This document shows positions 1 to 21,836 of a DNA stretch of 22,986 bases, in pieces. The notes under the pieces were generated by a model. The model was not told where the DNA came from and made no database searches. It saw only the letters and a program-made list of their open reading frames with translations. Made by a program: the position numbers and the translations under genes. The stretch comes from a virus (taxonomy: Duplodnaviria > Heunggongvirae > Uroviricota > Caudoviricetes): IMG/VR virus record IMGVR_UViG_2519899565_000007; one strand, 5' to 3'. How positions within the stretch are numbered: position 1 is the stretch's first letter; the number at the start of each line of letters is the position of its first letter.

Positions 1-1526
1 TCGTTGCCATTAACTCTGACGCTCATACCGCCCTCAGCGTAAGCTGGCGTAAGTAAAACTCCACCGGCTCCGTTACCATAGATACGGTTGTTGATTATAT
101 TAATATTATTGCAGTGGCCACCAACATTAATACCGTTACCGGTGTTTTGAAACAATCGGCACCCAATGATGTCAATGGAGTAACCGTTAACTAATATTGC
201 GTTGTTATTAGTATTAACCACGTCAATATTTTCTATTTTAATGTGGTTGGCTTCAGTAAGACTGATGCCGTTAGCTGCGTAGCCATTTCCGTCAAGACCA
301 AAGTCCCTGAACTCGCAGAACGTAATTACTCCATCTTGTTGCGTGATTATCGGTGCCGCTGTACCCGTAGAGAAAATTCTGGACTGATATGCGCCAGCAC
401 CTCGTATCATGGTGACAGTATTCTTAATCGTAATACCAGGGTCAACAATGAACACCCCCTCTGGTATAACAATCTCAGTTGGCAACGTAGCATCATCAAT
501 AGCCTTCTGAAACGCCGCTTTGTTCTGAGAACCGGTGTTGCCAACTTTAAATCCGTAGTCTGAAAGTGTCACCAAATCTACAGAAAGTTTTTCATATACC
601 GACATCGAGACGGCATCATTAAATTTAGGGGTATATGTAACTATTGAGGAGCCTTTATCTGTCTCTTGACTAATCAGGTCGCTCCGCAACGATGCATCCC
701 CTACAGATACCCAGGCACCAAGGGAAACCCCACCTGTTGATTCAGGGGTTGAATTCTCAGGAACATCTTTTGGTAAAGATCCATCCCAACGGTAGTACTC
801 GCCATTTCCATCAGGACGTTTCCAGTGAAGTGCCTGAAATCTAGTTGTTATTGAAGCACCATCCTGAAACGAATCAATAAGGGAATATCCCCATAACCCA
901 CTACTTTCAGGATCAAGAAGAAGCGGTGATCCAGAATTATCAAAACTCAGTGTTTTATTCTTTCTCCCATCCGCATCAGGTAACTCATTTATAAACGATT
1001 CAGGTACTCTCAAGCTTCTGCTTAGGCTGGCACCAGAAAGAATATCAACATAATCTTTCGTTGCTGCGTCTTTCGGCCTGGATGGGGCACGAAGATTACG
1101 AATATAGTTGTCCATTGCGTCGTAATAGTTAGCAGCAAATGACGGCTTACGTAGCGCCAGGCTAAACCAACTACGAACCTGCTGAATCAACATTGTCAAC
1201 TTATCAAGCGCATCCTCATGCACCTCAGCAAAGAACTTACCCTGGTTACGGAGATCCGTTTCCTGCGTAACCGGCAATTCACGTGATATGGAAATCTGGT
1301 AACCATTAGCAAGAGCTGTTGCCAGTATTACATTACCACCTACATACCCACCTGCGCCGGTTACTGTGTAGTCAGTATCTAGCGTCAGAACAGTGATGTT
1401 ATCGTTCAGGTCTACAACCTGGACTACCAGATCAGACTTCTTAAAAATCCTGAAGGTATAATGGAATGTCGTTGTAACACCGTTACCGGTGTATTCGTTG
1501 TGGTCAACTTCGGTTGAGACCGTCAT
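1..1526 (-). CDS. Tailspike / tail fibre, 3' end beyond window; T7 gp17-like N-terminal adaptor domain followed by beta-helix-like repeats
   Basis: ATG at 1526-1524 with GGAG 7 nt upstream; frame open to position 1 (checked triplets 3-299, no stops). N-terminus MTVSTEVDHNEYTGNGVTTTFHYTFRIF...VLTLDTDYTV has the pattern of T7 gp17 N-terminus as recalled; Asn/Gly-rich repeats downstream (NTGNGINVGG, NNRIYGNGAGG) suggest a parallel beta-helix. Confidence 0.75.
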   Translation of the reverse strand, partial: MTVSTEVDHNEYTGNGVTTTFHYTFRIFKKSDLVVQVVDLNDNITVLTLDTDYTVTGAGGYVGGNVILATALANGYQISISRELPVTQETDLRNQGKFFAEVHEDALDKLTMLIQQVRSWFSLALRKPSFAANYYDAMDNYIRNLRAPSRPKDAATKDYVDILSGASLSRSLRVPESFINELPDADGRKNKTLSFDNSGSPLLLDPESSGLWGYSLIDSFQDGASITTRFQALHWKRPDGNGEYYRWDGSLPKDVPENSTPESTGGVSLGAWVSVGDASLRSDLISQETDKGSSIVTYTPKFNDAVSMSVYEKLSVDLVTLSDYGFKVGNTGSQNKAAFQKAIDDATLPTEIVIPEGVFIVDPGITIKNTVTMIRGAGAYQSRIFSTGTAAPIITQQDGVITFCEFRDFGLDGNGYAANGISLTEANHIKIENIDVVNTNNNAILVNGYSIDIIGCRLFQNTGNGINVGGHCNNINIINNRIYGNGAGGVLLTPAYAEGGMSVRVNGN

Positions 1527-1579
1527 GTTAAATCTCCAGATAGTCGCAGCACCCGTTGCGCCGCATATCCGGTTATTCT

Positions 1580-1646
1580 ATTACCTGAAAAACCACATAT
1601 GGATATATAACCCATAAATACGAACAGATATTACCTTTCAGGTGAT
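1580..1646. repeat. Copy 1 of a shared regulatory element: ATTACC-N5-AACCACATATG ... ACGNACA ... 17-bp palindrome ATTACCTTTCAGGTGAT (1630-1646)
   Basis: Direct comparison with 18509-18587: identical ATTACC, AACCACATATG and ATTACCTTTCAGGT blocks in the same order and orientation. Lies in the divergent region between the tailspike start and the plus-strand 85-aa gene. Confidence 0.7.
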
Positions 1647-1682
1647 TCGCAAAACGTGCTGGATAGCAAACAAATTATTTGA

Positions 1683-1702
1683 TACTGTATATTTATACAG
1701 TT
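1683..1702 (+). promoter_or_regulatory. LexA (SOS) box TACTGTATATTTATACAGTT, immediately after a -35-like TTGATA (1679-1684)
   Basis: CTGT-N8-ACAG with AT-rich centre; 18/20 match to the E. coli consensus TACTGTATATATATACAGTA. Arrangement resembles the recA promoter (TTGATA followed directly by the LexA box). The -10 is weak (TATTGC at 1702-1707). Sits 20 bp upstream of the ATG at 1722. Confidence 0.75.
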
Positions 1703-1721: not shown

Positions 1722-1979
1722 ATGCAGCAGTATCACTATCCACTGGAAGACGGATTTACCGAAAGGATTCACACGCCGGGAGGCGTCAGGTCACTGGTGG
1801 AGGGATCGCACTTGATGAAATTACTCCGGGATCTCGATAAGGATGGATTTAATGTCGATGGCCCACTTGCCGAACTGACTGCACTGATTAACTACGTCAC
1901 CAGCTCACAGATGTCTATGCAGGATCTGCAAACACATCTCGACTATTGTGCCGAACAATTACGAAAACAAACCACATAA
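1722..1979 (+). CDS. Hypothetical 85-aa protein, putatively SOS-regulated; antisense to the structural operon
   Basis: ORF track 1704..1979 starts at TTG; in-frame ATG at 1722 has GGAG at 1710-1713. Soluble, no recognisable family. Confidence 0.55.
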   Translation: MQQYHYPLEDGFTERIHTPGGVRSLVEGSHLMKLLRDLDKDGFNVDGPLAELTALINYVTSSQMSMQDLQTHLDYCAEQLRKQTT

Positions 1980-2002: not shown

Positions 2003-2014
2003 GTGACATGTCAC
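2003..2014. repeat. 12-bp palindrome GTGACATGTCAC (copy a), overlapping the stop codon of the minus-strand gene 2011..2307
   Basis: Exact palindrome; the same 12-mer recurs at 21825-21836 and with one mismatch at 16521-16532 and 19560-19571. Confidence 0.7.
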
Positions 2015-2307
2015 GTCCCTTTTCTGAATGATAGCCATTCGAAAAATGATGACATTCCACCGCAGACAATAGCAAAGATGATCCCACCAAAGAAGAGAAG
2101 GCCAGCCTGCCACCACTCCCACCGCCATACATCCACAGCGCCAACCATACCAACAATCGCTCCAACAAATGGAATATAGCTCACGATGAAAGCAATGGGG
2201 GCTGCAATTATCCAGTGCAATCCCCACCATGATTCAAGCCCAGCCATAATTGCTGCCAACTGAAAAAGACCAACGACGATATAAACAATGAATCCTATAG
2301 CTTGCAT
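2011..2307 (-). CDS. Small hydrophobic membrane protein (98 aa, about 3 predicted TM segments)
   Basis: ATG at 2307 with AGGTGA 5 nt upstream; sequence dominated by hydrophobic stretches (FIVYIVVGLFQLAAIMAGL, IIAAPIAFIVSYIPFVGAIVGMVGAV, LLFFGGIIFAIVCGG). Confidence 0.6.
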   Translation of the reverse strand: MQAIGFIVYIVVGLFQLAAIMAGLESWWGLHWIIAAPIAFIVSYIPFVGAIVGMVGAVDVWRWEWWQAGLLFFGGIIFAIVCGGMSSFFEWLSFRKGT

Positions 2308-2502: not shown

Positions 2503-4977
2503 TTATTGCGGAGTGACATCCTGAGGTCGCCACCAGTATGTCTGGTTAAACTCTTTCTTCGAACGTTGCTCCATTTTACGCAAATAGCCTGGTGAAAAAT
2601 ACTCCTGCATCTGGTTAAAGATCATGTGATCGAGAGCCGCCTTCAAGTACCAGAGATTCGCACCAGGCATCAAACCTTTCCCCAGCTTCACCAGATCACC
2701 ACCAGTCTGCTCACTCTTCCCTTCCACAGCATTTAACGGTATGCCCTGAGCAATCTTCACTACGTCATCAACCAGACCAGCTACCGGGCCAAGCATCGAC
2801 GCCAGCGCGCCGCTTCCGTACCTAGTGTGATCTGACAATAAAAAGTCACCGTAAAGGCCAAGACCACCACCTTTCAGTAGAGCACCAAGCCAGAATTTTG
2901 CGGCATCTTCTCCTGTCATCTCTCGAGGATTACGACCAGACGCAAGGTCGTTAAGTTGCTGCGACAAAGCGCCAAGAATGGTCGTACTGGCAATAAACGT
3001 CGCAATATATGCCGCACGCCCACCAGCAGACGGCATACCCATAGCGCGTGACCAGTGACGCATAACAACCGAGATAGGGAACGATTTAAACAGGAAAACA
3101 CTTCTCGTTAATTCACCTTTCCATGTTCCACGCTGAATACCAGAACCGGTTATCAGTTGCTCACGTGCTCCCGGTGTAATAACAGCCATATCAACTTCTT
3201 CAGTTACGGCACCGAGCAGTTTACGCATTGCCTCAAATTTCACGCGTTCAGGCTCACCAAGATGTTTAACTGCTGAATCAGGGATACGCATAATGCTTTC
3301 CGGTGTCAGCATCGTATTATTACCGTTCCCCCAGTCCTCCTGTTGCGCCAGCTTCCATACGCTCCAGTCTGTGTCAGTAATCCCTTTACTTTTCAGGATA
3401 CGAAAATCAGAGTCATCGAGGCTACGAAGGTCTGGTGTCCGTGACACTACTTCTCCCAGGCTTCCCATCATGGTTACGCCATAGGCGCGCTTGTGCGCAT
3501 CTGACCATGCTGTAAGCCCACTGGCACGCATTACCGCCGTTGCCGCCCAACGAGACACAGACGGCCCCATATTATCCATCGCCCAGCGGTTAACGCTGCC
3601 AAGTAGAGATTCCATCGCCAGGCCAGCGCGGCGCGCCCGCGCAAGCTCAGTACGGTTCGTTGGGTCCATAGCTTCAAGCTGGTTGCGAAATAACTGGTTC
3701 ATTGGAAGGTTGGTAACCTTCGCAGACAGATACATGGTTCCAAGATCAGAGAACGATGACAGCAACGCGGATCCGAGTCTGCTGGCAACCAGCCAGTTGC
3801 GGATATTGTCAGACCATCGCGCGATGTGCGGATTCGCTACAGGCTGTGTTTTTCCGGAAATAAAGTTGTACAAGTTCTCTGTTTTGTTCGCCAGACGCTC
3901 GACGCTACCGGTTTTACTCGGGTTAGCTGTTGCCGTTTCTGCCTTAACCTGATCAAGAAGAGAGCGGAAAACATGATCGGGGTTTGGGCCATATGTTTCC
4001 ACCAGCGCAATATCTTTACTGATACCTTCCAGGTGACCGACCATGATTTCCCATAGAGAGCGATCGCCATAAAGTTGCTGATATTGCAGATAGGAATCTG
4101 CATCTTTGAAATGTATCTGTCGTGATGCATTACCACGGTTAGCACGTACGCCGGAAATTCGCATTCCGGTATCAGTAAGCTTATTCAGCCCACCAGTAGC
4201 GATCGTGTTATAAGCCTCTCCAAGAAATGCAGACAACTCGGCATCGTTCATCAGTTGTCCATCGGCTCGGGTATAATATTTGCGATCCAGCTTACCTATA
4301 ACATCGCTAACCCATTTATCTTTTGATACCGCCCCAACCTTTTCCATAGAATGATGTTGAGGGATCCCCCAGTTTTCGAGATAGCCAATGTCCCCACCAG
4401 CATCATTAAACCGGCGGCGCAGTAGATCTGTCACTTCTCTCCACGCCTTAGCACCTTTTCTTGCTTTAGCATTGCCAGTATTTTGCCCTCGCATTTCATA
4501 TACCAGGTCACGCACGCCCGCTTCATCTTCAAACAGGCCAAAAAAGCGAGGATCGACTGCTTCAAATGCCTCCTGCAATTGACTCAATGCATAATCACGA
4601 GTGGCTTTTGTTCTGGATTCAACAGAGAGGAAATTCGATTTACCGTCTGCATTAAAAGCAATAGTACGGTTAAGAGCGCCAAGTTTCCCATCAGCCCCTT
4701 GATAGCTATTGATAAATTTATCCAATCTCTGACGTGCGGCTATAGTGAGGGCCACACGACGTTTCTTTAATGCCGCTTCTCGCTGTAATTCTTCAGATGC
4801 CAATTGTGCTGCACGATACAACCGTTCTGATTCGGAAAGTTGTCGCCACGACATCGGGTCATCACGAGCAATGGAGCGCATATTTCGATAAATGCGGTCT
4901 TCAATGTTCTGTATTTCTCGCGCCGTTAACGTGCGCTGCGCCGCCTGCTGGACCGCTTGTATACATTCCTGTCTCAT
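2503..4977 (-). CDS. Internal virion / ejection protein (824 aa), gp16-like by position
   Basis: Long ORF, ATG at 4977, five nt after the upstream stop; position equivalent to T7 internal core proteins; C-terminal hydrophobic segment. Confidence 0.7.
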   Translation of the reverse strand: MRQECIQAVQQAAQRTLTAREIQNIEDRIYRNMRSIARDDPMSWRQLSESERLYRAAQLASEELQREAALKKRRVALTIAARQRLDKFINSYQGADGKLGALNRTIAFNADGKSNFLSVESRTKATRDYALSQLQEAFEAVDPRFFGLFEDEAGVRDLVYEMRGQNTGNAKARKGAKAWREVTDLLRRRFNDAGGDIGYLENWGIPQHHSMEKVGAVSKDKWVSDVIGKLDRKYYTRADGQLMNDAELSAFLGEAYNTIATGGLNKLTDTGMRISGVRANRGNASRQIHFKDADSYLQYQQLYGDRSLWEIMVGHLEGISKDIALVETYGPNPDHVFRSLLDQVKAETATANPSKTGSVERLANKTENLYNFISGKTQPVANPHIARWSDNIRNWLVASRLGSALLSSFSDLGTMYLSAKVTNLPMNQLFRNQLEAMDPTNRTELARARRAGLAMESLLGSVNRWAMDNMGPSVSRWAATAVMRASGLTAWSDAHKRAYGVTMMGSLGEVVSRTPDLRSLDDSDFRILKSKGITDTDWSVWKLAQQEDWGNGNNTMLTPESIMRIPDSAVKHLGEPERVKFEAMRKLLGAVTEEVDMAVITPGAREQLITGSGIQRGTWKGELTRSVFLFKSFPISVVMRHWSRAMGMPSAGGRAAYIATFIASTTILGALSQQLNDLASGRNPREMTGEDAAKFWLGALLKGGGLGLYGDFLLSDHTRYGSGALASMLGPVAGLVDDVVKIAQGIPLNAVEGKSEQTGGDLVKLGKGLMPGANLWYLKAALDHMIFNQMQEYFSPGYLRKMEQRSKKEFNQTYWWRPQDVTPQ

Positions 4978-18274: not shown

Positions 18275-18481
18275 TTACTGACCAAGCAGCGTTTTACCGC
18301 TGGTATTAGCGGTTGATGTGTCGCCCTGAGAACCGGTAAGCAGCGTAGAACTACGACCAGCAGCAGCGCGACGGCGACGTGTTTCTTCGTCGCGGGCATC
18401 AACAACGGCGGCATCCTGCTCCTGTGGTGCTGCCTGAACTTCTGGTGTTGCAGGCACTGATGGTGAGCTACCCATGCACAT
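18275..18481 (-). CDS. Hypothetical small low-complexity protein (68 aa) immediately upstream of the portal gene
   Basis: ATG at 18481 with GGAG 8 nt upstream; its initiation region (ACGGAGTCATTGAT-ATG) nearly duplicates the portal one (CCGGAGTCATTGAA-ATG). Confidence 0.45.
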   Translation of the reverse strand: MCMGSSPSVPATPEVQAAPQEQDAAVVDARDEETRRRRAAAGRSSTLLTGSQGDTSTANTSGKTLLGQ

Positions 18482-18508
18482 ATCAATGACTCCGTACGCA
18501 ATTAAATT

Positions 18509-18587
18509 ATTACCAATTTAACCACATATGATTTATTTATCGTAGATAGTTGACATTTAACGCACAAATTATTACCTTTCAGGTAAT
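18509..18587. repeat. Copy 2 of the shared regulatory element, with a 12-bp insertion carrying TTGACA (18550-18555); perfect 17-bp palindrome ATTACCTTTCAGGTAAT (18571-18587)
   Basis: See copy 1; lies between the minus-strand 68-aa/portal genes and the plus-strand tRNA unit. Confidence 0.7.
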
Positions 18588-18908
18588 CAAAGGGTTCATT
18601 CCGGTTATTAACCTGACTGGCTTGTCGTTAAATTGAACAGGTGGAGTGAGCTTTTATTTTGAGCAGTACGGCGTATGGCACATGCGCCGATAGCGGTCTG
18701 GATACGTTTAAGGGGCACCCTCCCTTGCTCGGGCAAACGAACCAGGTAGCCGGGATGTGCAAGTCGAGCGGTTTTATTCCGCGCACGGGGATTCACCATC
18801 CCGGCGATTCGGTGTGACGCCTCGGAAGAGACGAGGGTACAACGATGAGAGCATTTATGGAGCCGCGACAAAGTGTGGCGCCTTAACAGGCTAAGTGCTC
18901 TCAGCGTT
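18588..18908 (+). other. About 320 bp ORF-free, GC-rich, hairpin-rich segment upstream of the tRNA; candidate structured RNA or long tRNA leader
   Basis: No plus-strand ORF above ~25 codons; several local stems (e.g. CCTCG-N7-CGAGG at 18820-18836); followed directly by the tRNA. Confidence 0.3.
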
Positions 18909-18985
18909 GTGGCATTAGCTCAGTTGGACAGAGCAACCGCCTTCTAAGCGGTTGGTCGCAGGTTCGAATCCTGCATGCCACGCCA
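18909..18985 (+). tRNA. tRNA-Arg (anticodon UCU), argU-like, CCA encoded
   Basis: Hand-folded cloverleaf: acceptor GTGGCAT/ATGCCAC, U8-A9, D-arm GCTC-AGTTGGACA-GAGC, anticodon arm ACCGC-CTTCTAA-GCGGT (UCU at 18943-18945), T-arm GCAGG-TTCGAAT-CCTGC, discriminator G, CCA. D, anticodon and T arms match E. coli argU as recalled. Confidence 0.9.
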
Positions 18986-19028
18986 GAATCACGCCTAAGG
19001 ACCGTGATGCCAGAAGTTCCAGGTGCTT

Positions 19029-19070
19029 GGCGGTGATAGTTTCCCTTGAAGGACTATCACCGCCCTTTTT
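19029..19070 (+). terminator. Strong intrinsic terminator after the tRNA (12-bp perfect stem plus CTTTTT)
   Basis: GGCGGTGATAGT (19029-19040) pairs with ACTATCACCGCC (19053-19064), followed by TTTTT at 19066-19070. Confidence 0.85.
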
Positions 19071-19100
19071 ACAGCAGGACGCCATTGCGATGACTTCATG

Positions 19101-19116
19101 CTGTAAACCCGTACAG
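19101..19116 (+). promoter_or_regulatory. Weak LexA-like site CTGTAAACCCGTACAG (CTGT-N8-ACAG), between the two tandem terminators
   Basis: Correct half-site spacing but the centre is GC-containing and the flanks are non-consensus. Confidence 0.25.
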
Positions 19117-19148
19117 CCACGGAAAGCATAACTCATTGCTTCCAGTTC

Positions 19149-19172
19149 GCCCGGTTCGCCGGGCATTTTTTT
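19149..19172 (+). terminator. Second intrinsic terminator/attenuator (GCCCGG-UUCG-CCGGGC followed by A and U7) ending 11 nt before the start codon of the 123-aa ORF
   Basis: 6-bp GC stem with UUCG tetraloop and seven Ts (19166-19172); then AAGGTGAG (SD) and ATG at 19184. Confidence 0.7.
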
Positions 19173-19183
19173 AAGGTGAGATT

Positions 19184-19555
19184 ATGAACGACCAGCAAAT
19201 CGAAAAAGAAATCGTTGAGAAAGGCAAAACGGCACCGCGCGTTACGCCAGACCATATCGAAGGCATTATTGCTCAGGAGGCATATTTCACAGCAGAAGAT
19301 GGTGCCTTTGGCAAAGCCATAAAAGCGAAACATACTGGCGGAGAGGTAAACTACCAGCCGCACGAATCACTTTCTCTGCTGACGTTCTGCGTCCTGGTGC
19401 TGCGCAACGGCTTCACCGTCACCGGAGAGAGTTCCTGTGCAAGTCCGGAAAATTTTGATGCAGAAATTGGTCGGAAGATTGCCCGGCAGAATGCTGTAAA
19501 CAAAATCTGGATGCTCGAAGGTTACTTGCTGAAGCAGAAGTTAAGCGAGCAATAA
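19184..19555 (+). CDS. Hypothetical 123-aa protein (moron), antisense to the structural operon
   Basis: ATG with AAGGTGAG SD; flanked by intrinsic terminators on both sides; no family recognised by eye. Confidence 0.6.
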   Translation: MNDQQIEKEIVEKGKTAPRVTPDHIEGIIAQEAYFTAEDGAFGKAIKAKHTGGEVNYQPHESLSLLTFCVLVLRNGFTVTGESSCASPENFDAEIGRKIARQNAVNKIWMLEGYLLKQKLSEQ

Positions 19556-19645: not shown

Positions 19646-21121
19646 TTAAGCATAAGGGTCATAATCCGTTATGGCCCTTCCCTGCTGGCTTTGCTGTCCT
19701 GGTATATTTATGCGTTTCGAGACCGGGAAAGCAAACGTCAGCAGTAGCGCATCGCCTTTACCAGGAGAACGCCCAAGACGCTCTTTGATATCTTCCTTCG
19801 GTTCGATAACGATTTTACCGTCCACACGAACTTTGTACTCTGCCGCCGACAGGTCGTCTGCAGTTTCTTGGTCATCCAGCATGCCGCCCAGCCTCAGCCA
19901 TGTCTTACATGAGTTGAACATCTCCCCACGCTTGTTAAGCATCTGCGGGTCAGTGGACGCACCGCCGAACGGAACAAGTTGCCATGTACGTCCCCAGCCA
20001 TCACCGATTGACTTCAAACCGGTTCCATAACCGAAGTCGATGAACACCGCGTCAGCCTGATACTGGTCTTCAAAGTCAGCGATACGCTTCGCCATAATCA
20101 GATCGTCGGTGGTCTTGTTACCAGTCCATAGCACCTTACTGTGCAGCCCCTGCCGCAGGTATATCACAGCGTCATCAACGCCGGAGTATGCCGGGTCAAC
20201 GCCGATTATCACCGGAGCATGTGCAACCTGCGCAGCGGTTACCACCCGTTTCATTGCCTCGTCAGTAAGGCCGGTAGGGATAAACTGCAATTCAGATGCA
20301 TCCGGGAATATGCCGCGCACACGGATTTTAACGAAGTCGCTGTCTTCCCCGTAGTCATCAACCCATTTCTGCAACTGCTGTTTGTTAGTGCCTTCCACCG
20401 TCCGGCTGTCAATCTGCGCAGTTTTCCAGCGGTGTTTATATTTGCGGAAACATTCGCGGAAACGCCCGGTGTTACGTGTAGGGTTTCCGAATGCCACCCA
20501 GATAATCTCAGTGTCTTCGTCCGTCAGCGCACCCTCTGCTACCTCCCACACCAGATCGGCAATGTTGGATGCTTCGTCGAATACCACGATGATGCGTTTG
20601 CGCTCGTTGTGTAGTCCGGCGAATGCCTCAGTGTTGTGCTCAGACCAGGGGATTGCGTCAGCTCGCCACCGCTTGTCGTGCCCAGGGTCATTGCTGTACA
20701 TCGCGGTAGCGGTACAGGTAAACCAGTCTTTCGTGATAGCAAGGTTCGACCACTTGATAATTTCCGGCCAAGTCTTCGTTCGTAGCTGGTTTTCGGTGTT
20801 GGCGGTCACCACGACCTTACAATCCTCGCAAGTGGACATGCCCCAGTTGATCAGCATTGAGATGAATGCGGATTTACCAATACCGTGACCAGAAGCACGT
20901 GTCAGCATAAGCGGCTGATATCGCGTCTCTGGATTCTGCAGGTGATCACGTATCTCTCGGAACGCATCGGCCTGCCACTGACGTGGACCGGTGGCATGTG
21001 CCAGTTCAGTACCCTCTTCCCCCCACGGGAACGCATAGAGGGCATAGCCAAGCGGATCGTGAGTGAACCCTGCAATATCCTCGATTAACTGCTCTTCAGG
21101 AGATAACGCTGTATCTGTCAC
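19646..21121 (-). CDS. Terminase large subunit (491 aa)
   Basis: Size and position; ATPase-like segments (VVVTANTENQ, Walker-B-like VVFDEASN) and a C-terminal Asp-rich nuclease-like region (VIIGVDPAYSGVDDAVIY); GTG start at 21121 overlapping the small-terminase stop (GTGA). Confidence 0.85.
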   Translation of the reverse strand: MTDTALSPEEQLIEDIAGFTHDPLGYALYAFPWGEEGTELAHATGPRQWQADAFREIRDHLQNPETRYQPLMLTRASGHGIGKSAFISMLINWGMSTCEDCKVVVTANTENQLRTKTWPEIIKWSNLAITKDWFTCTATAMYSNDPGHDKRWRADAIPWSEHNTEAFAGLHNERKRIIVVFDEASNIADLVWEVAEGALTDEDTEIIWVAFGNPTRNTGRFRECFRKYKHRWKTAQIDSRTVEGTNKQQLQKWVDDYGEDSDFVKIRVRGIFPDASELQFIPTGLTDEAMKRVVTAAQVAHAPVIIGVDPAYSGVDDAVIYLRQGLHSKVLWTGNKTTDDLIMAKRIADFEDQYQADAVFIDFGYGTGLKSIGDGWGRTWQLVPFGGASTDPQMLNKRGEMFNSCKTWLRLGGMLDDQETADDLSAAEYKVRVDGKIVIEPKEDIKERLGRSPGKGDALLLTFAFPVSKRINIPGQQSQQGRAITDYDPYA

Positions 21122-21714
21122 TGATTGCCATCCTGACGTTCTTTCAGTCTCTTCCTGGCTGCCGCTATGCGATCAGCAATTGTCACATTCACATTAACAT
21201 CCAGGCGTTCTTTGAATGCGTTGACGTCGACGTGCTTACCAATCAGTTCGAGGTTCTTCACCTTGTCAGGCCATTTAATTTTTTTGAGGATTGTCTCTAT
21301 CGAATCCTCGTTCATGTTCATGATGGTCGATGACAGATCAAAGCCACTAAGCGTAGTGCGCCAGATTTTCGGCCACTCACGGATTGGTTTAAGGCTCCCA
21401 TCGTCGTTGAGGATATCGATCACGTCCATCTGGTCGATCTCCACCAGGCGCATGAGAACGTAATCAGCACTGACGCGCATTCGTTTGTTGCGCTCCTCCA
21501 TCAACTCGGCAATCCGTTTTTGAATGCGTTCATCGCGCATCATGACACTGGCTTTAACTGCCGCTGTATTTGGGGAGAATCCTGCGTTAATCGCTGCCTG
21601 AGTCTGGTTTTCAGGCGTTTTGATGTATGACTGGCAATAAGCCTCCTGCATTGCTGTTAGTGGCTTAAATTGCGTTGATTTGCGTTTATAGGTTTTAGGT
21701 TCAGCAGGCATCAT
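21118..21714 (-). CDS. Terminase small subunit (P27-like family), about 198 aa
   Basis: Immediately upstream of and coupled to the large terminase; motifs ...AINAGFSPNTAAVKAS... and ...LELIGKH... typical of phage small terminases as recalled. ORF-track start 21792 is TTG; tandem ATGs at 21714/21711 follow GGTGG. Confidence 0.75.
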   Translation of the reverse strand: MMPAEPKTYKRKSTQFKPLTAMQEAYCQSYIKTPENQTQAAINAGFSPNTAAVKASVMMRDERIQKRIAELMEERNKRMRVSADYVLMRLVEIDQMDVIDILNDDGSLKPIREWPKIWRTTLSGFDLSSTIMNMNEDSIETILKKIKWPDKVKNLELIGKHVDVNAFKERLDVNVNVTIADRIAAARKRLKERQDGNQ

Positions 21715-21721
21715 AACCACC

Positions 21722-21753
21722 GTGGTAATAGTTACCGTTGTGGTAATAGTACC
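21722..21753. repeat. Tandem imperfect direct repeat GTGGTAATAGTTACC / GTGGTAATAGT-ACC just upstream of the small-terminase start
   Basis: Two ~15-bp units separated by GTT; each contains GGTAA-N-TTACC-like half-sites related to the ATTACC/GGTAAT half-sites of the 17-bp palindrome. Confidence 0.55.
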
Positions 21754-21756
21754 ATG

Positions 21757-21783
21757 CAAAATAAAGCCGCCATAGTTGGCGGC
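21757..21783 (-). terminator. Intrinsic terminator (GCCGCC-N6-GGCGGC followed by UUUAUUUUG on the minus strand) upstream of the terminase genes
   Basis: 6-bp GC stem 21766-21771/21778-21783; minus-strand T-tract is the rc of 21757-21765. Confidence 0.65.
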
Positions 21784-21824
21784 AGTATTCAAAACACATC
21801 AAATTCATCATGCATAATCCACTC

Positions 21825-21836
21825 GTGACATGTCAC
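21825..21836. repeat. 12-bp palindrome GTGACATGTCAC (copy c), overlapping the stop codon of the minus-strand gene 21833..22171
   Basis: Exact match to copy a; same register relative to the TGA stop (G-TGA-CATGTCAC on the minus strand). Confidence 0.7.

Follow-up and report, generated by a model that had tools for sequence, protein, structure and literature searches.

The window, i.e., the whole stretch of 22,986 nt that was analyzed, is 97–98% identical to phages of the phiV10 group (megablast) and is, judging by this relationship, the late-gene half of a phiV10/epsilon15-like Uetakevirus. One end is occupied by the 5' part of the tailspike gene on the minus strand (1..1526, start codon 1526-1524, continuing beyond the window), which is followed by a plus-strand gene encoding a protein of 85 aa (1722..1979). 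A second divergent intergenic region separates a gp3-like gene (18275..18481, minus strand, 68 aa), which opens the portal/head operon, from a plus-strand cassette comprising a tRNA-Arg gene (anticodon TCT, 18909..18985) and a gene of the PF13876 family (N4 gp49 / Sf6 gp66; 19184..19555, E 4.6e-34). In searches with Rfam covariance models, the tRNA alone reached threshold (gathering, and E<=1), and an RNA-level role for the element described below was not supported, this tRNA being the only match. The rep gene and the immunity region are located outside the window. The 97–98% identical relatives encode a Rep protein homologous to SPC32H Rep, and the phiV10 repressor aligns over its full length with the latter (PDB 5D50_A, E 1.9e-41).

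Both divergent regions carry the same two-part element on the plus strand. The pattern ATTACC-N5-AACCACATATG was found at 1580-1601 (copy 1) and 18509-18530 (copy 2), followed by the palindrome ATTACCTTTCAGGTRAT at 1630-1646 and 18571-18587, respectively. In shuffles of the window, 0.07 occurrences were expected per pattern, and the observed count was reached by no shuffle. These positions agree with an earlier note on this DNA, which had placed one element in both divergent regions, in the same order and orientation. The 17-bp palindrome fits the consensus ATTACC-N5-GGTAAT, to which copy 1 (ATTACCTTTCAGGTGAT, 1630..1646) shows one mismatch and copy 2 (ATTACCTTTCAGGTAAT, 18571..18587) none; allowing up to two mismatches, five matches were found in the window versus 0.63 expected. 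The linker between box and palindrome is longer in copy 2 (40 nt) than in copy 1 (28 nt). This net difference of 12 nt bears out the proposed 12-bp insertion in copy 2 that adds a TTGACA hexamer (18550-18555). A further ATTACC had been claimed about 45 bp upstream of the palindrome in each copy, which holds for copy 1 (gap of 44 nt, 50 bp start-to-start) but not for copy 2 (56 nt and 62 bp). Moreover, the ACGNACA motif is present in both copies as described; since relatives do not conserve the linker containing it, it was removed from the element.

The record of phage epsilon15 (AY150271 / NC_004775) lists seven 'repressor / lysogeny' sites, all of the form ATTACC-N5-GGTAAT, as record annotations that may be purely in silico. 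Among them are sites in front of gp3 and of terS and one that separates gp19 (ant) from the tailspike gene. The epsilon15 positions 12-27, 2931-2947 and 19895-19911 align with the terS, copy 2 and copy 1 sites, respectively, so that both phages share the 17-bp consensus and the same three late-region positions, in addition to clusters at OL/OR. The paper tied to these repressor-binding sites is reportedly that of Kropinski et al. 2007. The common consensus and the orthologous positions argue for the suggestion that the palindrome is an operator; its reading as the site of a simple dimer was given up, since Rep is described as a tetramer in PMC9638917.

The motif search across the phage and its relatives proposed in the earlier note revealed about ten positions that are shared by six genomes, the hosts of which belong to four genera. 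For the whole phiV10 genome, 15 matches were counted versus 1.3 expected, and in its intergenic DNA the motif was present at 11 loci versus 0.12 expected. The copy 1 operator was detected in 59/59 distinct ant-upstream sequences and the copy 2 operator in 70 of the 72 distinct gp3-upstream sequences. Furthermore, in six related complete genomes the repressor gene has clusters of this motif on either side (OL/OR), and where full operators are paired, at OL and before p45, the distance is 62 bp in 11/12 cases. A de novo k-mer search of whole genomes was dominated by codon-bias repeats such as CTGCTG. Within phiV10 intergenic DNA, the top 8-mers other than A/T runs were operator half-site words, e.g., GGTAATAA and AGGTAATA, and a targeted pattern count of the same DNA found operator and box both enriched. 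In phage ZX5, a close relative, overexpression of the identical repressor decreased endolysin and holin transcripts by >99.9% (PMC9782041). An IHF site is annotated beside the epsilon15 operators; in 1527-1722, 18481-18640 and 21700-21830 of the window, the IHF consensus WATCAANNNNTTR had no exact match, and matches with one mismatch only were obtained.

By its sequence, the repeated element is the already annotated repressor operator of epsilon15/phiV10-type temperate phages. The predicted operators are joined to the candidate promoters of the tailspike and portal operons and are, on this comparison, an ordinary part of the known lysogeny switch. The assignment as Rep operator is supported by homology, annotation and conservation.

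On the minus strand of copy 1, a candidate tailspike promoter was located at 1575..1603, with a -35 hexamer TCCATA (1603-1598), a 17-nt spacer and a -10 hexamer TAGAAT (1580-1575). It contains the AACCACATATG box at 1591-1601, and a predicted Rep half-site, GGTAAT (1580..1585, minus strand), lies in its spacer at a centre-to-centre distance of 50 bp from the operator, a spacing kept in 58/58 sequences. The hexamers are weak in the window (PWM 8.6), and the PWM scan placed the candidate at the same position in all seven genomes with scores of 8.6–12.3. The promoter blocks are kept across ten sequences from seven genera, while their flanks vary. In the multi-genus alignment, the conserved blocks comprise the -10, the half-site, the -35, the operator, the ant -35 and the SOS box, connected by variable linkers.

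Residues 2-85 of the 85-aa protein encoded on the plus strand match chain E of PDB 5D50, the 'Anti-repressor protein' of SPC32H (E 1.3e-47), and no Pfam family scored above threshold for this protein. A candidate promoter (1660..1688, plus strand) consists of a -35 TGGATA (1660-1665), a 17-nt spacer and a -10 TACTGT (1683-1688); it occupies the same position in six of seven genomes, and the sequence GCTGGATAG at this promoter is conserved in the multi-genus alignment. Its -10/start region is overlapped by a LexA (SOS) box, TACTGTATATTTATACAGTT (1683..1702, plus strand), with two mismatches to the 20-bp consensus and 0 expected in shuffles. This box follows the operator after 36 nt in 59/59 distinct sequences, which were gathered by anchoring on the SOS box itself. 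The gene is divergent from the tailspike gene, as are SPC32H_020/021 and epsilon15 gp19/gp20. By homology, it is ant, encoding the LexA-controlled antirepressor of an SPC32H-type Rep/Ant switch. The earlier note had regarded it as an insertion; it is instead a conserved antirepressor gene with a candidate LexA-controlled promoter of its own.

For copy 2, a candidate promoter of the gp3/portal operon was placed at 18504..18532 on the minus strand (-35 ATCATA, 18532-18527; 17-nt spacer; -10 TAATTT, 18509-18504). It includes the box at 18520-18530 and has the same geometry as the tailspike candidate; its PWM score is weak (~5) and the exact hexamers are uncertain. The predicted half-site in its spacer, GGTAAT (18509..18514, minus strand), is separated from the operator by 62 bp centre-to-centre, and this spacing was found in 55/60 sequences, with 64 bp in the other five. 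The block CATATGTGGTTAAATTGGTAATAATTTAAT represents the most conserved part of the 72 distinct gp3-upstream sequences. On the plus strand, a candidate promoter at 18550..18578 combines TTGACA (18550-18555), a 17-nt spacer and TACCTT (18573-18578); its -10 and start region are located inside the operator and it points at the tRNA-Arg/PF13876 cassette. TTGACA-17-TACCTT achieved the second-best sigma70 PWM score in the whole window and shows the same geometry in all seven genomes. Moreover, the offset of TGTCAA is fixed at 15 nt in 44 of 60 relatives, and five more have it at 3 nt. As far as can be read from this pattern, the TTGACA of copy 2 is a conserved -35 with its -10 inside the operator, constituting a candidate promoter.

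The stricter built-in promoter scan reported no promoter in either intergenic region, so our own sigma70 PWM, combined with positional conservation, was used for the promoter candidates, and the hexamer assignments are provisional. Two tandem operator-like sites with one mismatch each (21713-21729 and 21731-21747, together 21713..21747) lie between a terminator hairpin (21766-21783) and the terS start codon (21711-21709); the PWM scan revealed no sigma70 candidate between terminator and terS. The supposition that these repeats belong to the same regulon gains support from their matches to ATTACC-N5-GGTAAT and from a 'repressor' site annotated for epsilon15 at the corresponding place (12-27). 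One common architecture for all late promoters was rejected, since the lysis-cassette promoter, which is without a half-site and deviates by 3 nt in its box-to-(-10) distance, departs from the tailspike/gp3 arrangement. In addition, no partner half-site was found for the lysis-cassette operator at either 50 or 62 bp.

Based on these results, each copy is proposed to act as a compact control region for divergent transcription in a phiV10/epsilon15-type temperate podophage, and a probability of roughly 0.8 is assigned to this Rep-operator/divergent-promoter model for both copies as a whole. The 17-bp palindrome would serve as operator for the CI-like repressor Rep, with about ten such positions over the genome. 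Towards the minus strand, the operator would be followed by a late-operon core promoter (tailspike in copy 1, gp3/portal/head in copy 2), the spacer of which would carry one extra Rep half-site 50 or 62 bp from the operator. Towards the plus strand, the putative LexA-repressed ant promoter would follow the operator in copy 1, and in copy 2 the operator would overlap the -10/start region of the promoter presumed to drive the variable tRNA-Arg cargo cassette. The earlier note had left it undecided whether the element controls the plus strand, the minus strand or both, and the arrangement points to both. Its placement of the element in front of the plus-strand genes is correct as to position, but the oriented half, i.e., half-site plus AACCACATATG, appears to belong to the minus-strand late promoters.

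Bound to the operator in a lysogen, tetrameric Rep would keep both divergent promoters silent, including the internal late promoters and the cargo promoter, and would probably also contact the promoter-embedded half-site via its second pair of DNA-binding domains. Following DNA damage, inactivation of LexA would permit synthesis of Ant, which would dismantle the Rep tetramer, and all operators would be vacated together. This scheme draws on three publications, in which Rep is reported as a tetramer on palindromic sites that is dismantled by tetrameric Ant (PMC9638917), the tetramerisation domain of Rep is found to resemble those of DNA-looping regulators (PMC9986798), and the route from LexA via Ant to repressor inactivation is summarized (PMC7380047). 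It is further based on the sequences themselves, their non-random recurrence, positional orthology, the homology of Ant and Rep to the solved SPC32H proteins and a footprint-like conservation; from these, we infer Rep binding at the sites, the exact hexamers and start sites, and bridging between operator and half-site. The inferred late start sites lie ~70–85 bp downstream of the full operator, a distance too great for plain occlusion, so that late-promoter repression would depend on the unproven half-site/bridging step. The pairs spaced by 50 and 62 bp at the late promoters have only a half-site as proximal member, and the 50-bp spacing, with 4.8 helical turns, is not as well phased as that of 62 bp (5.9 turns).

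That a single Rep tetramer bridges distal operator and half-site and that, in addition, a second regulator acts at CCATATGTGGTT is put forward as a tentative combination that we consider rather improbable in its entirety. Its first part, bridging at 50/62 bp, would be a mechanism not yet described for Uetakevirus late promoters and would mirror the 62-bp pairs at PL and p45; for its second part, a Cro-like or early-to-late switch protein or the second HTH domain of Rep may be considered. A stronger version, in which the shared block is chiefly the site of such a second regulator (Cro-like or early-to-late switch), with the Rep operator as a separate module, is doubtful. The target of this protein would be the near-palindrome CCATATGTGG(TT), which is AACCACATATGG read on the minus strand. 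All genomes share a CCATATGTGGTT-like box at gp3, tailspike, lysis cassette, OL, p42 and p45 and have a weaker version of it close to the rep promoter; in phiV10 intergenic DNA, the box was found at seven loci versus 0.18 expected. Measured from centre to centre, box and operator are 19.5, 40.5-43.5 or 52.5 bp apart, near whole helical turns (~2, 4 and 5, in at least six regulatory regions), and in the PL and p45 candidate promoters it occupies the same spacer positions in opposite orientations, as would a symmetric protein site. On the other hand, the box position relative to the candidate -35/-10 varies between promoters (about -19.5, -26 to -30 and -40), part of the box can simply be read as the -35 hexamer in the tailspike and gp3 promoters, and Salmonella tailspike copies, reading TCATATAAGG, lose the CC...GG symmetry. 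No Pfam domain was found in the small early proteins p41, p42 and p55. A second regulator would add to the Rep-operator reading and not replace it. Interpretations of the box as class II activator site, DnaA box, CRP site or sigma54 promoter were rejected by eye due to misfits in spacing or core bases.

The location of both copies just upstream of plus-strand genes that interrupt the minus-strand late region would suit a promoter/operator end of mobile cassettes (morons), travelling with the insertions in order to express them. The variable cargo of copy 2 (tRNA-Arg and PF13876 in the window, DUF551 and others in Tyrion, different genes in BUCT711) and its strong plus-strand promoter candidate fit as well. 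However, the oriented block is fixed relative to the minus-strand starts (in 55 of 60 sequences, 29–31 nt separate GGTAAT and the gp3 ATG) and is kept whatever the cargo; the lysis cassette, p42 and p45 likewise have operator and box, p45 being without an opposite-strand cassette; and ant is a conserved core gene with its own candidate promoter and SOS box, 14 nt beyond the operator. The cassette explanation is accordingly highly improbable. Slightly less credible still is a role of the conserved blocks mainly as recombination anchors at module boundaries, enabling cargo and tailspike exchange with no regulatory function. Both copies do lie at boundaries of the mosaic, bordered by variable cargo in one direction and by host-specific tailspike genes in the opposite one, and megablast matches of many relatives break near 1043-1123 and 1403. 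Conservation is nevertheless confined to short blocks matching operator, half-site, -35/-10 and SOS box, and since these alternate with unconserved linkers, they resemble a pattern of protein-binding sites rather than homology arms; furthermore, the palindrome also flanks the rep gene in a classic OL/OR arrangement. Chance similarity of two regions that are both AT-rich, with ACGNACA and the linker not being conserved, can practically be dismissed, as it is already refuted by the shuffles (expectation 0.07 per box, observed count never reached) and by genus-wide positional conservation.

The divergent Rep-operator regions resemble several known systems. One is epsilon15, the record of which has no annotation of the promoter-embedded half-site, the 50/62-bp spacing or the CCATATGTGGTT box; the phiV10 record annotates no operators. 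The phiV10-group repressor is only 42% identical to that of epsilon15 (PMC9782041), and despite this divergence both groups share the same operator arms. In the SPC32H Rep/Ant/LexA switch (PDB 5D4Z, 5D50), ant occupies the same locus, divergent from the tailspike gene. SPC32H is a Salmonella phage of the SPN1S type, whereas the phage in the window is of the E. coli phiV10 type. Descriptions of the SPC32H switch are said to be those of Kim & Ryu 2013 and Kim et al. 2016.

In mycobacteriophage L5 (cluster A), the genome is dotted with numerous repressor sites, termed stoperators, which are asymmetric, orientation-dependent and located inside transcribed regions. The predicted repressor sites of the phage studied here are likewise spread over early and late regions, and the tandem terS sites, being without a promoter candidate, could act as roadblocks in the manner of L5 stoperators. 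Assignment to the mycobacteriophage type was rejected, as the sites are symmetric and lie at promoters, the terS pair excepted. Palindromic 17-bp sites that overlap promoters, flank the repressor gene and form pairs of fixed spacing (62 bp, 11/12) are reminiscent of OL/OR in lambda and P22. In contrast to these phages, extra operators are predicted to guard every late transcription unit and the attP/int region, and Rep would be inactivated by an antirepressor and not by RecA-stimulated cleavage, as described in PMC7380047. According to the same publication, coliphage 186 (Tum) and the Gifsy/Fels-2 prophages follow the same logic, in which LexA cleavage leads to an antirepressor that inactivates the repressor by protein-protein contact; unlike in these phages, the ant gene considered here is embedded in the tail-gene region.

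With the proposed model, two unannotated intergenic regions of phiV10-type E. coli prophages gain an assigned function, and ant, which is only hypothetical in the phiV10 annotation, would be the SOS-controlled trigger of induction. One repressor is predicted to guard the early genes and every late unit (packaging, head, tailspike and lysis). This is of relevance for phage engineering, as phiV10 derivatives serve as O157 reporter phages, and for predicting cross-immunity and cross-induction among Uetakevirus prophages of E. coli, Salmonella, Klebsiella and Citrobacter, in which operator arms are common and repressors have diverged. The second motif and the fixed 50/62-bp geometry represent modest leads. 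In the two most divergent IMG/VR groups, operator arms and embedded half-site were both changed, a co-variation that is suggestive and, being limited to two groups, was not used as evidence: one group reads ATAACC...GGTAGT together with GGTTAA, and the other ATAAAC...GTTAGT together with GTTTAT.

Judged by position and sequence, the element repeated at 1580–1646 (copy 1) and 18509–18587 (copy 2) is a member of the operator set of Rep, the repressor of epsilon15/SPC32H-like phages. Across roughly 90% of its length, the window was 97–98% identical to E. coli phages of the phiV10 group, which include O157 typing phages 9 and 10, PAS61, phiv142-3, phiV10 and ZX5; Tyrion, epsilon15, SPN1S/SPC32H and Klebsiella Uetakeviruses are remoter relatives. 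It represents the half of the genome that encodes late functions, in reverse orientation. The minus strand carries terS, terL, gp3, the portal, head, tail and internal-virion genes and the tailspike gene, and this run is broken by two short plus-strand units, namely an 85-codon gene (1722–1979) after copy 1 and, after copy 2, tRNA-Arg(TCT) (18909–18985) followed by a PF13876 gene (19184–19555).

Pattern searches located ATTACC-N5-AACCACATATG at 1580–1601 and 18509–18530 and the palindrome ATTACCTTTCAGGTRAT at 1630–1646 and 18571–18587, all on the plus strand and in identical order. In dinucleotide-preserving shuffles of the window, 0.07 occurrences were expected per pattern and the observed count was never reached, which bears out the ordered, same-strand element described in the earlier note. 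Its 12-bp difference between the copies was also confirmed: box and palindrome are separated by 28 nt in copy 1, whereas copy 2 has 40 nt between them, including TTGACA (18550–18555, plus strand). The ACGNACA motif, likewise assigned to the element, also recurs in copies 1 and 2; it was dropped because the linker holding it varies freely among relatives.

The epsilon15 records contain seven protein_bind features labelled 'repressor / lysogeny', and ATTACC-N5-GGTAAT is the sequence of all seven extracted sites. Three of these occupy positions orthologous to sites in the window: the one preceding terS corresponds to the terS repeats, the one preceding gp3 to copy 2, and the one separating gp19 from the tailspike gene to copy 1; the others flank the repressor gene or precede gp24. 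Accordingly, the operator reading of the palindrome stands, but not the proposed dimeric regulator, since Rep is described as a tetramer (PMC9638917). Inclusion of the terS repeats in the same regulon is supported by operator-like sites at 21713–21729 and 21731–21747 together with the epsilon15 repressor site at the orthologous position.

Allowing up to two mismatches, five operator matches were found in the window (0.63 expected). For phiV10, 15 matches were counted (1.3 expected), and its intergenic DNA (2,670 nt) harbours 11 operator loci compared with 0.12 expected, a count reached in 0 of 500 shuffles. The suggested motif search over related genomes covered six complete ones, from phages infecting E. 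coli, Salmonella, Enterobacter and Klebsiella, and showed operators kept at orthologous positions: terS (mostly as a tandem pair), gp3, tailspike, the lysis cassette, attP/int, OL and OR, which flank rep (2–3 sites each), p42, and p45 (two sites). Because motif and positions are annotated in the sister phage epsilon15 and the switch has been solved structurally, this part of the finding is already known. The operator-like sequence ATTACCTTAAAGGTATA lies in the attP region of phiV10 (26869–26885), just upstream of int, and at the same position in five other genomes; its conservation suggests that Rep may act on integrase expression or the attachment site. Furthermore, the most divergent relatives in the gp3 region (L140/L141 and L159–L167, from IMG/VR) possess changed operator arms (ATAAAC...GTTAGT; ATAACC...GGTAGT) and correspondingly changed promoter-embedded hexamers (GTTTAT; GGTTAA), which hints at differing immunity specificities with co-varying sites.

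The phiV10 repressor aligned over its full length with SPC32H Rep (PDB 5D50_A, E 1.9e-41), and NLVNRW in the N-terminal domain is identical in both. It is shared without change by ZX5, phiV10, phiv142-3 and typing phage 10 and shows 42% identity to the epsilon15 repressor (PMC9782041). According to PMC9638917, Rep binds palindromic sites as a tetramer in which the members of a DNA-binding pair come from two different dimers, and PMC9986798 likens its tetramerisation domain to those of DNA-looping regulators. A significant Pfam HTH_3 match covers residues 105–146 of phiV10 Rep (32087–32668, minus strand), i.e., in the C-terminal half crystallised as tetramerisation/Ant-binding domain; the N-terminal DNA-binding domain gave only a weak YdaS/Cro-like match. 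With HTH_3 in one half and the DNA-binding domain in the other, Rep therefore has two HTH-like modules.

The product of ORF 1722–1979 matched the 'Anti-repressor protein' of PDB 5D50 chain E (E 1.3e-47, residues 2–85), and in SPC32H ant is annotated at the equivalent place, divergent from tsp. Directly upstream, the plus strand carries the LexA (SOS) box TACTGTATATTTATACAGTT (1683–1702), with two mismatches to the 20-bp consensus and a chance expectation of none. On these grounds the gene, previously taken for an insertion, is the core gene ant. Since it encodes Ant and carries an SOS box, copy 1 is part of the central genetic switch rather than a neighbour of an accessory insertion, and the element is tied to an SPC32H-type LexA/Ant induction module. 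For this phage type, PMC7380047 (citing Kim & Ryu 2013) gives the induction route as LexA cleavage, production of Ant and inactivation of the repressor. Between ant and the tail operon, phiV10 has a Bro-N 'antirepressor' cassette (p22-p23, 2940–3990); the corresponding window region (1980–2503) is devoid of it and has an ORF for a 98-aa membrane protein (2011–2307, minus strand). In the ZX5 study, the protein examined as 'the anti-repressor' was the Bro-N one, and the small Ant homologue was left unconsidered (PMC9782041).

In order to assign the element to a strand, seven sequences were aligned in phage orientation and scanned on both strands with a simple sigma70 PWM. Four candidates recurred at constant position in all or nearly all genomes. 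On the minus strand, these are a tailspike candidate (-35 TCCATA, 1603–1598; 17-nt spacer; -10 TAGAAT, 1580–1575), reading TTCATA at -35 in most relatives and TACAAT at -10 in 65FD, and a weakly scoring gp3 candidate of the same geometry (ATCATA-17-TAATTT, 18532–18504). The third half-site of the earlier note is GGTAAT within the spacers of both, abutting the -10, and the minus-strand reading of AACCACATATG supplies the -35 and the upstream spacer part. A dedicated promoter scan missed these two late candidates, whose hexamers are weak. On the plus strand, the ant candidate (TGGATA, 1660–1665; 17-nt spacer; TACTGT, 1683–1688) has its -10 at the start of the SOS box. The copy-2 candidate (TTGACA, 18550–18555; 17-nt spacer; TACCTT, 18573–18578) has the operator left arm as its -10; only one other site in the window, counting both strands, scored higher in the PWM scan.

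The ant-tailspike intergenic region was aligned for ten sequences from E. coli, Salmonella and Klebsiella phages and Citrobacter, Erwinia, Pseudocitrobacter and Scandinavium prophages. Conserved blocks comprise ATTCTATTACC (-10 plus half-site) and AAnCC..ATATGAA (-35 region) on the minus-strand promoter side, the operator, GCTGGATAG (ant -35), the SOS box and the Shine-Dalgarno sequence, separated by stretches without conservation. Upstream of ant, the operator occurred in 59/59 distinct sequences and half-site plus box in 58/59; half-site and operator were 50 bp apart (centre to centre) in 58/58, and SOS box and operator 36 nt apart in 59/59. Among 72 distinct gp3-upstream sequences (gp3 identity 55–100%), 70 had the operator and 60 box and half-site, spaced by 62 bp in 55/60 and 64 bp in 5/60; the gp3 start codon followed 29–31 nt from the half-site end in 55. 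The distance between the operator and TGTCAA (TTGACA read on the other strand) was 15 nt in 44 of these 60 and 3 nt in 5. The plus-strand cargo after copy 2 differs in Tyrion and BUCT711. Because of the fixed spacings, the block is tied to the minus-strand genes regardless of what the plus-strand unit carries. Of the previously considered options of control over either strand or both, fixed spacings and conserved blocks support assigning the oriented half to the minus-strand promoters, albeit with candidate hexamers; the copy-2 operator also overlaps a plus-strand candidate.

At OL and before p45, where full operators come in pairs, their centres are 62 bp apart in 11/12 cases in the six genomes, with candidate promoters between or under them. 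Copy 2 has this 62-bp geometry with the proximal site cut to one arm, whereas the 50 bp of copy 1 fit the helical phase less well. The most economical account, in which we infer binding, start sites and bridging, is that in the lysogen a Rep tetramer would grip the distal operator through one DNA-binding domain pair, and the second pair would contact the promoter-embedded half-site and keep the late promoter closed. At copy 2, the Rep-bound operator would directly cover the -10 and start region of the plus-strand promoter; at copy 1, control of the plus-strand promoter would be left to LexA. Upon SOS induction, Ant would be made and would dismantle Rep, as PMC9638917 describes, releasing all sites simultaneously. 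Since about 70–85 bp separate the full operators from the inferred late start sites downstream, late repression would depend on the putative half-site contact. When the repressor identical to that of phiV10 was overexpressed in ZX5, endolysin and holin transcripts fell by over 99.9% (PMC9782041), which is consistent with this account but could be an indirect effect. No partner half-site was found for the lysis-cassette operator. The terS pair (21713–21747, sites 18 bp apart) fills the gap between a rho-independent terminator hairpin (21766–21783) and the terS start codon, where the PWM scan gave no promoter candidate; it may represent a roadblock to read-through into the packaging genes rather than a promoter operator. 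In logic, the window's operators are like lambda-type paired operators; they resemble the dispersed L5 stoperators in dispersal only.

On the minus strand, the box reads as the near-palindromic CCATATGTGGTT (1591–1602 and 18520–18531). Its positions in phiV10 are 3307, 20920, 24738, 33134, 35115 and about 31975. Beyond the two copies, close variants are placed at the lysis cassette, downstream of the p42 operator and between the operators of both OL and p45, with a weaker copy near the rep promoter. In each Uetakevirus genome examined, the motif accompanies Rep operators in no fewer than six regulatory regions, and phiV10 intergenic DNA has seven loci (0.18 expected). Centre-to-centre distances to operators, computed from positions, are 19.5 bp at OL, p42 and p45, 40.5–43.5 bp at tailspike, lysis, OL, p45 and OR, and 52.5 bp at gp3. 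Because its position relative to the candidate -35/-10 differs between promoters, the motif is not simply a promoter element. A Pfam search of small early proteins as possible binders returned no domain. This motif may be the only new part of the finding; together with the bridging geometry it represents a modest lead.

Around the plus-strand unit after copy 2, the hypothetical p04 ORF of phiV10 (PhiV10p04; window 18915–19166, minus strand) overlaps the tRNA-Arg gene in antisense and is unlikely to be a real gene. CTGTAAACCCGTACAG (19101–19116), flanked by two terminator-like hairpins shortly before the PF13876 gene, is one of three CTGT-N8-ACAG matches in the window (0.38 expected); it may be due to chance and, with its GC-rich centre, is a poor candidate for a LexA box. 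The approximately 320 nt from the copy-2 operator to tRNA-Arg (18588–18908) are GC-rich, matched no Rfam family and have an unusually high degree of predicted structure (MFE -122.9 kcal/mol, z = -3.3); in epsilon15, an RNase III site is annotated at the corresponding region.
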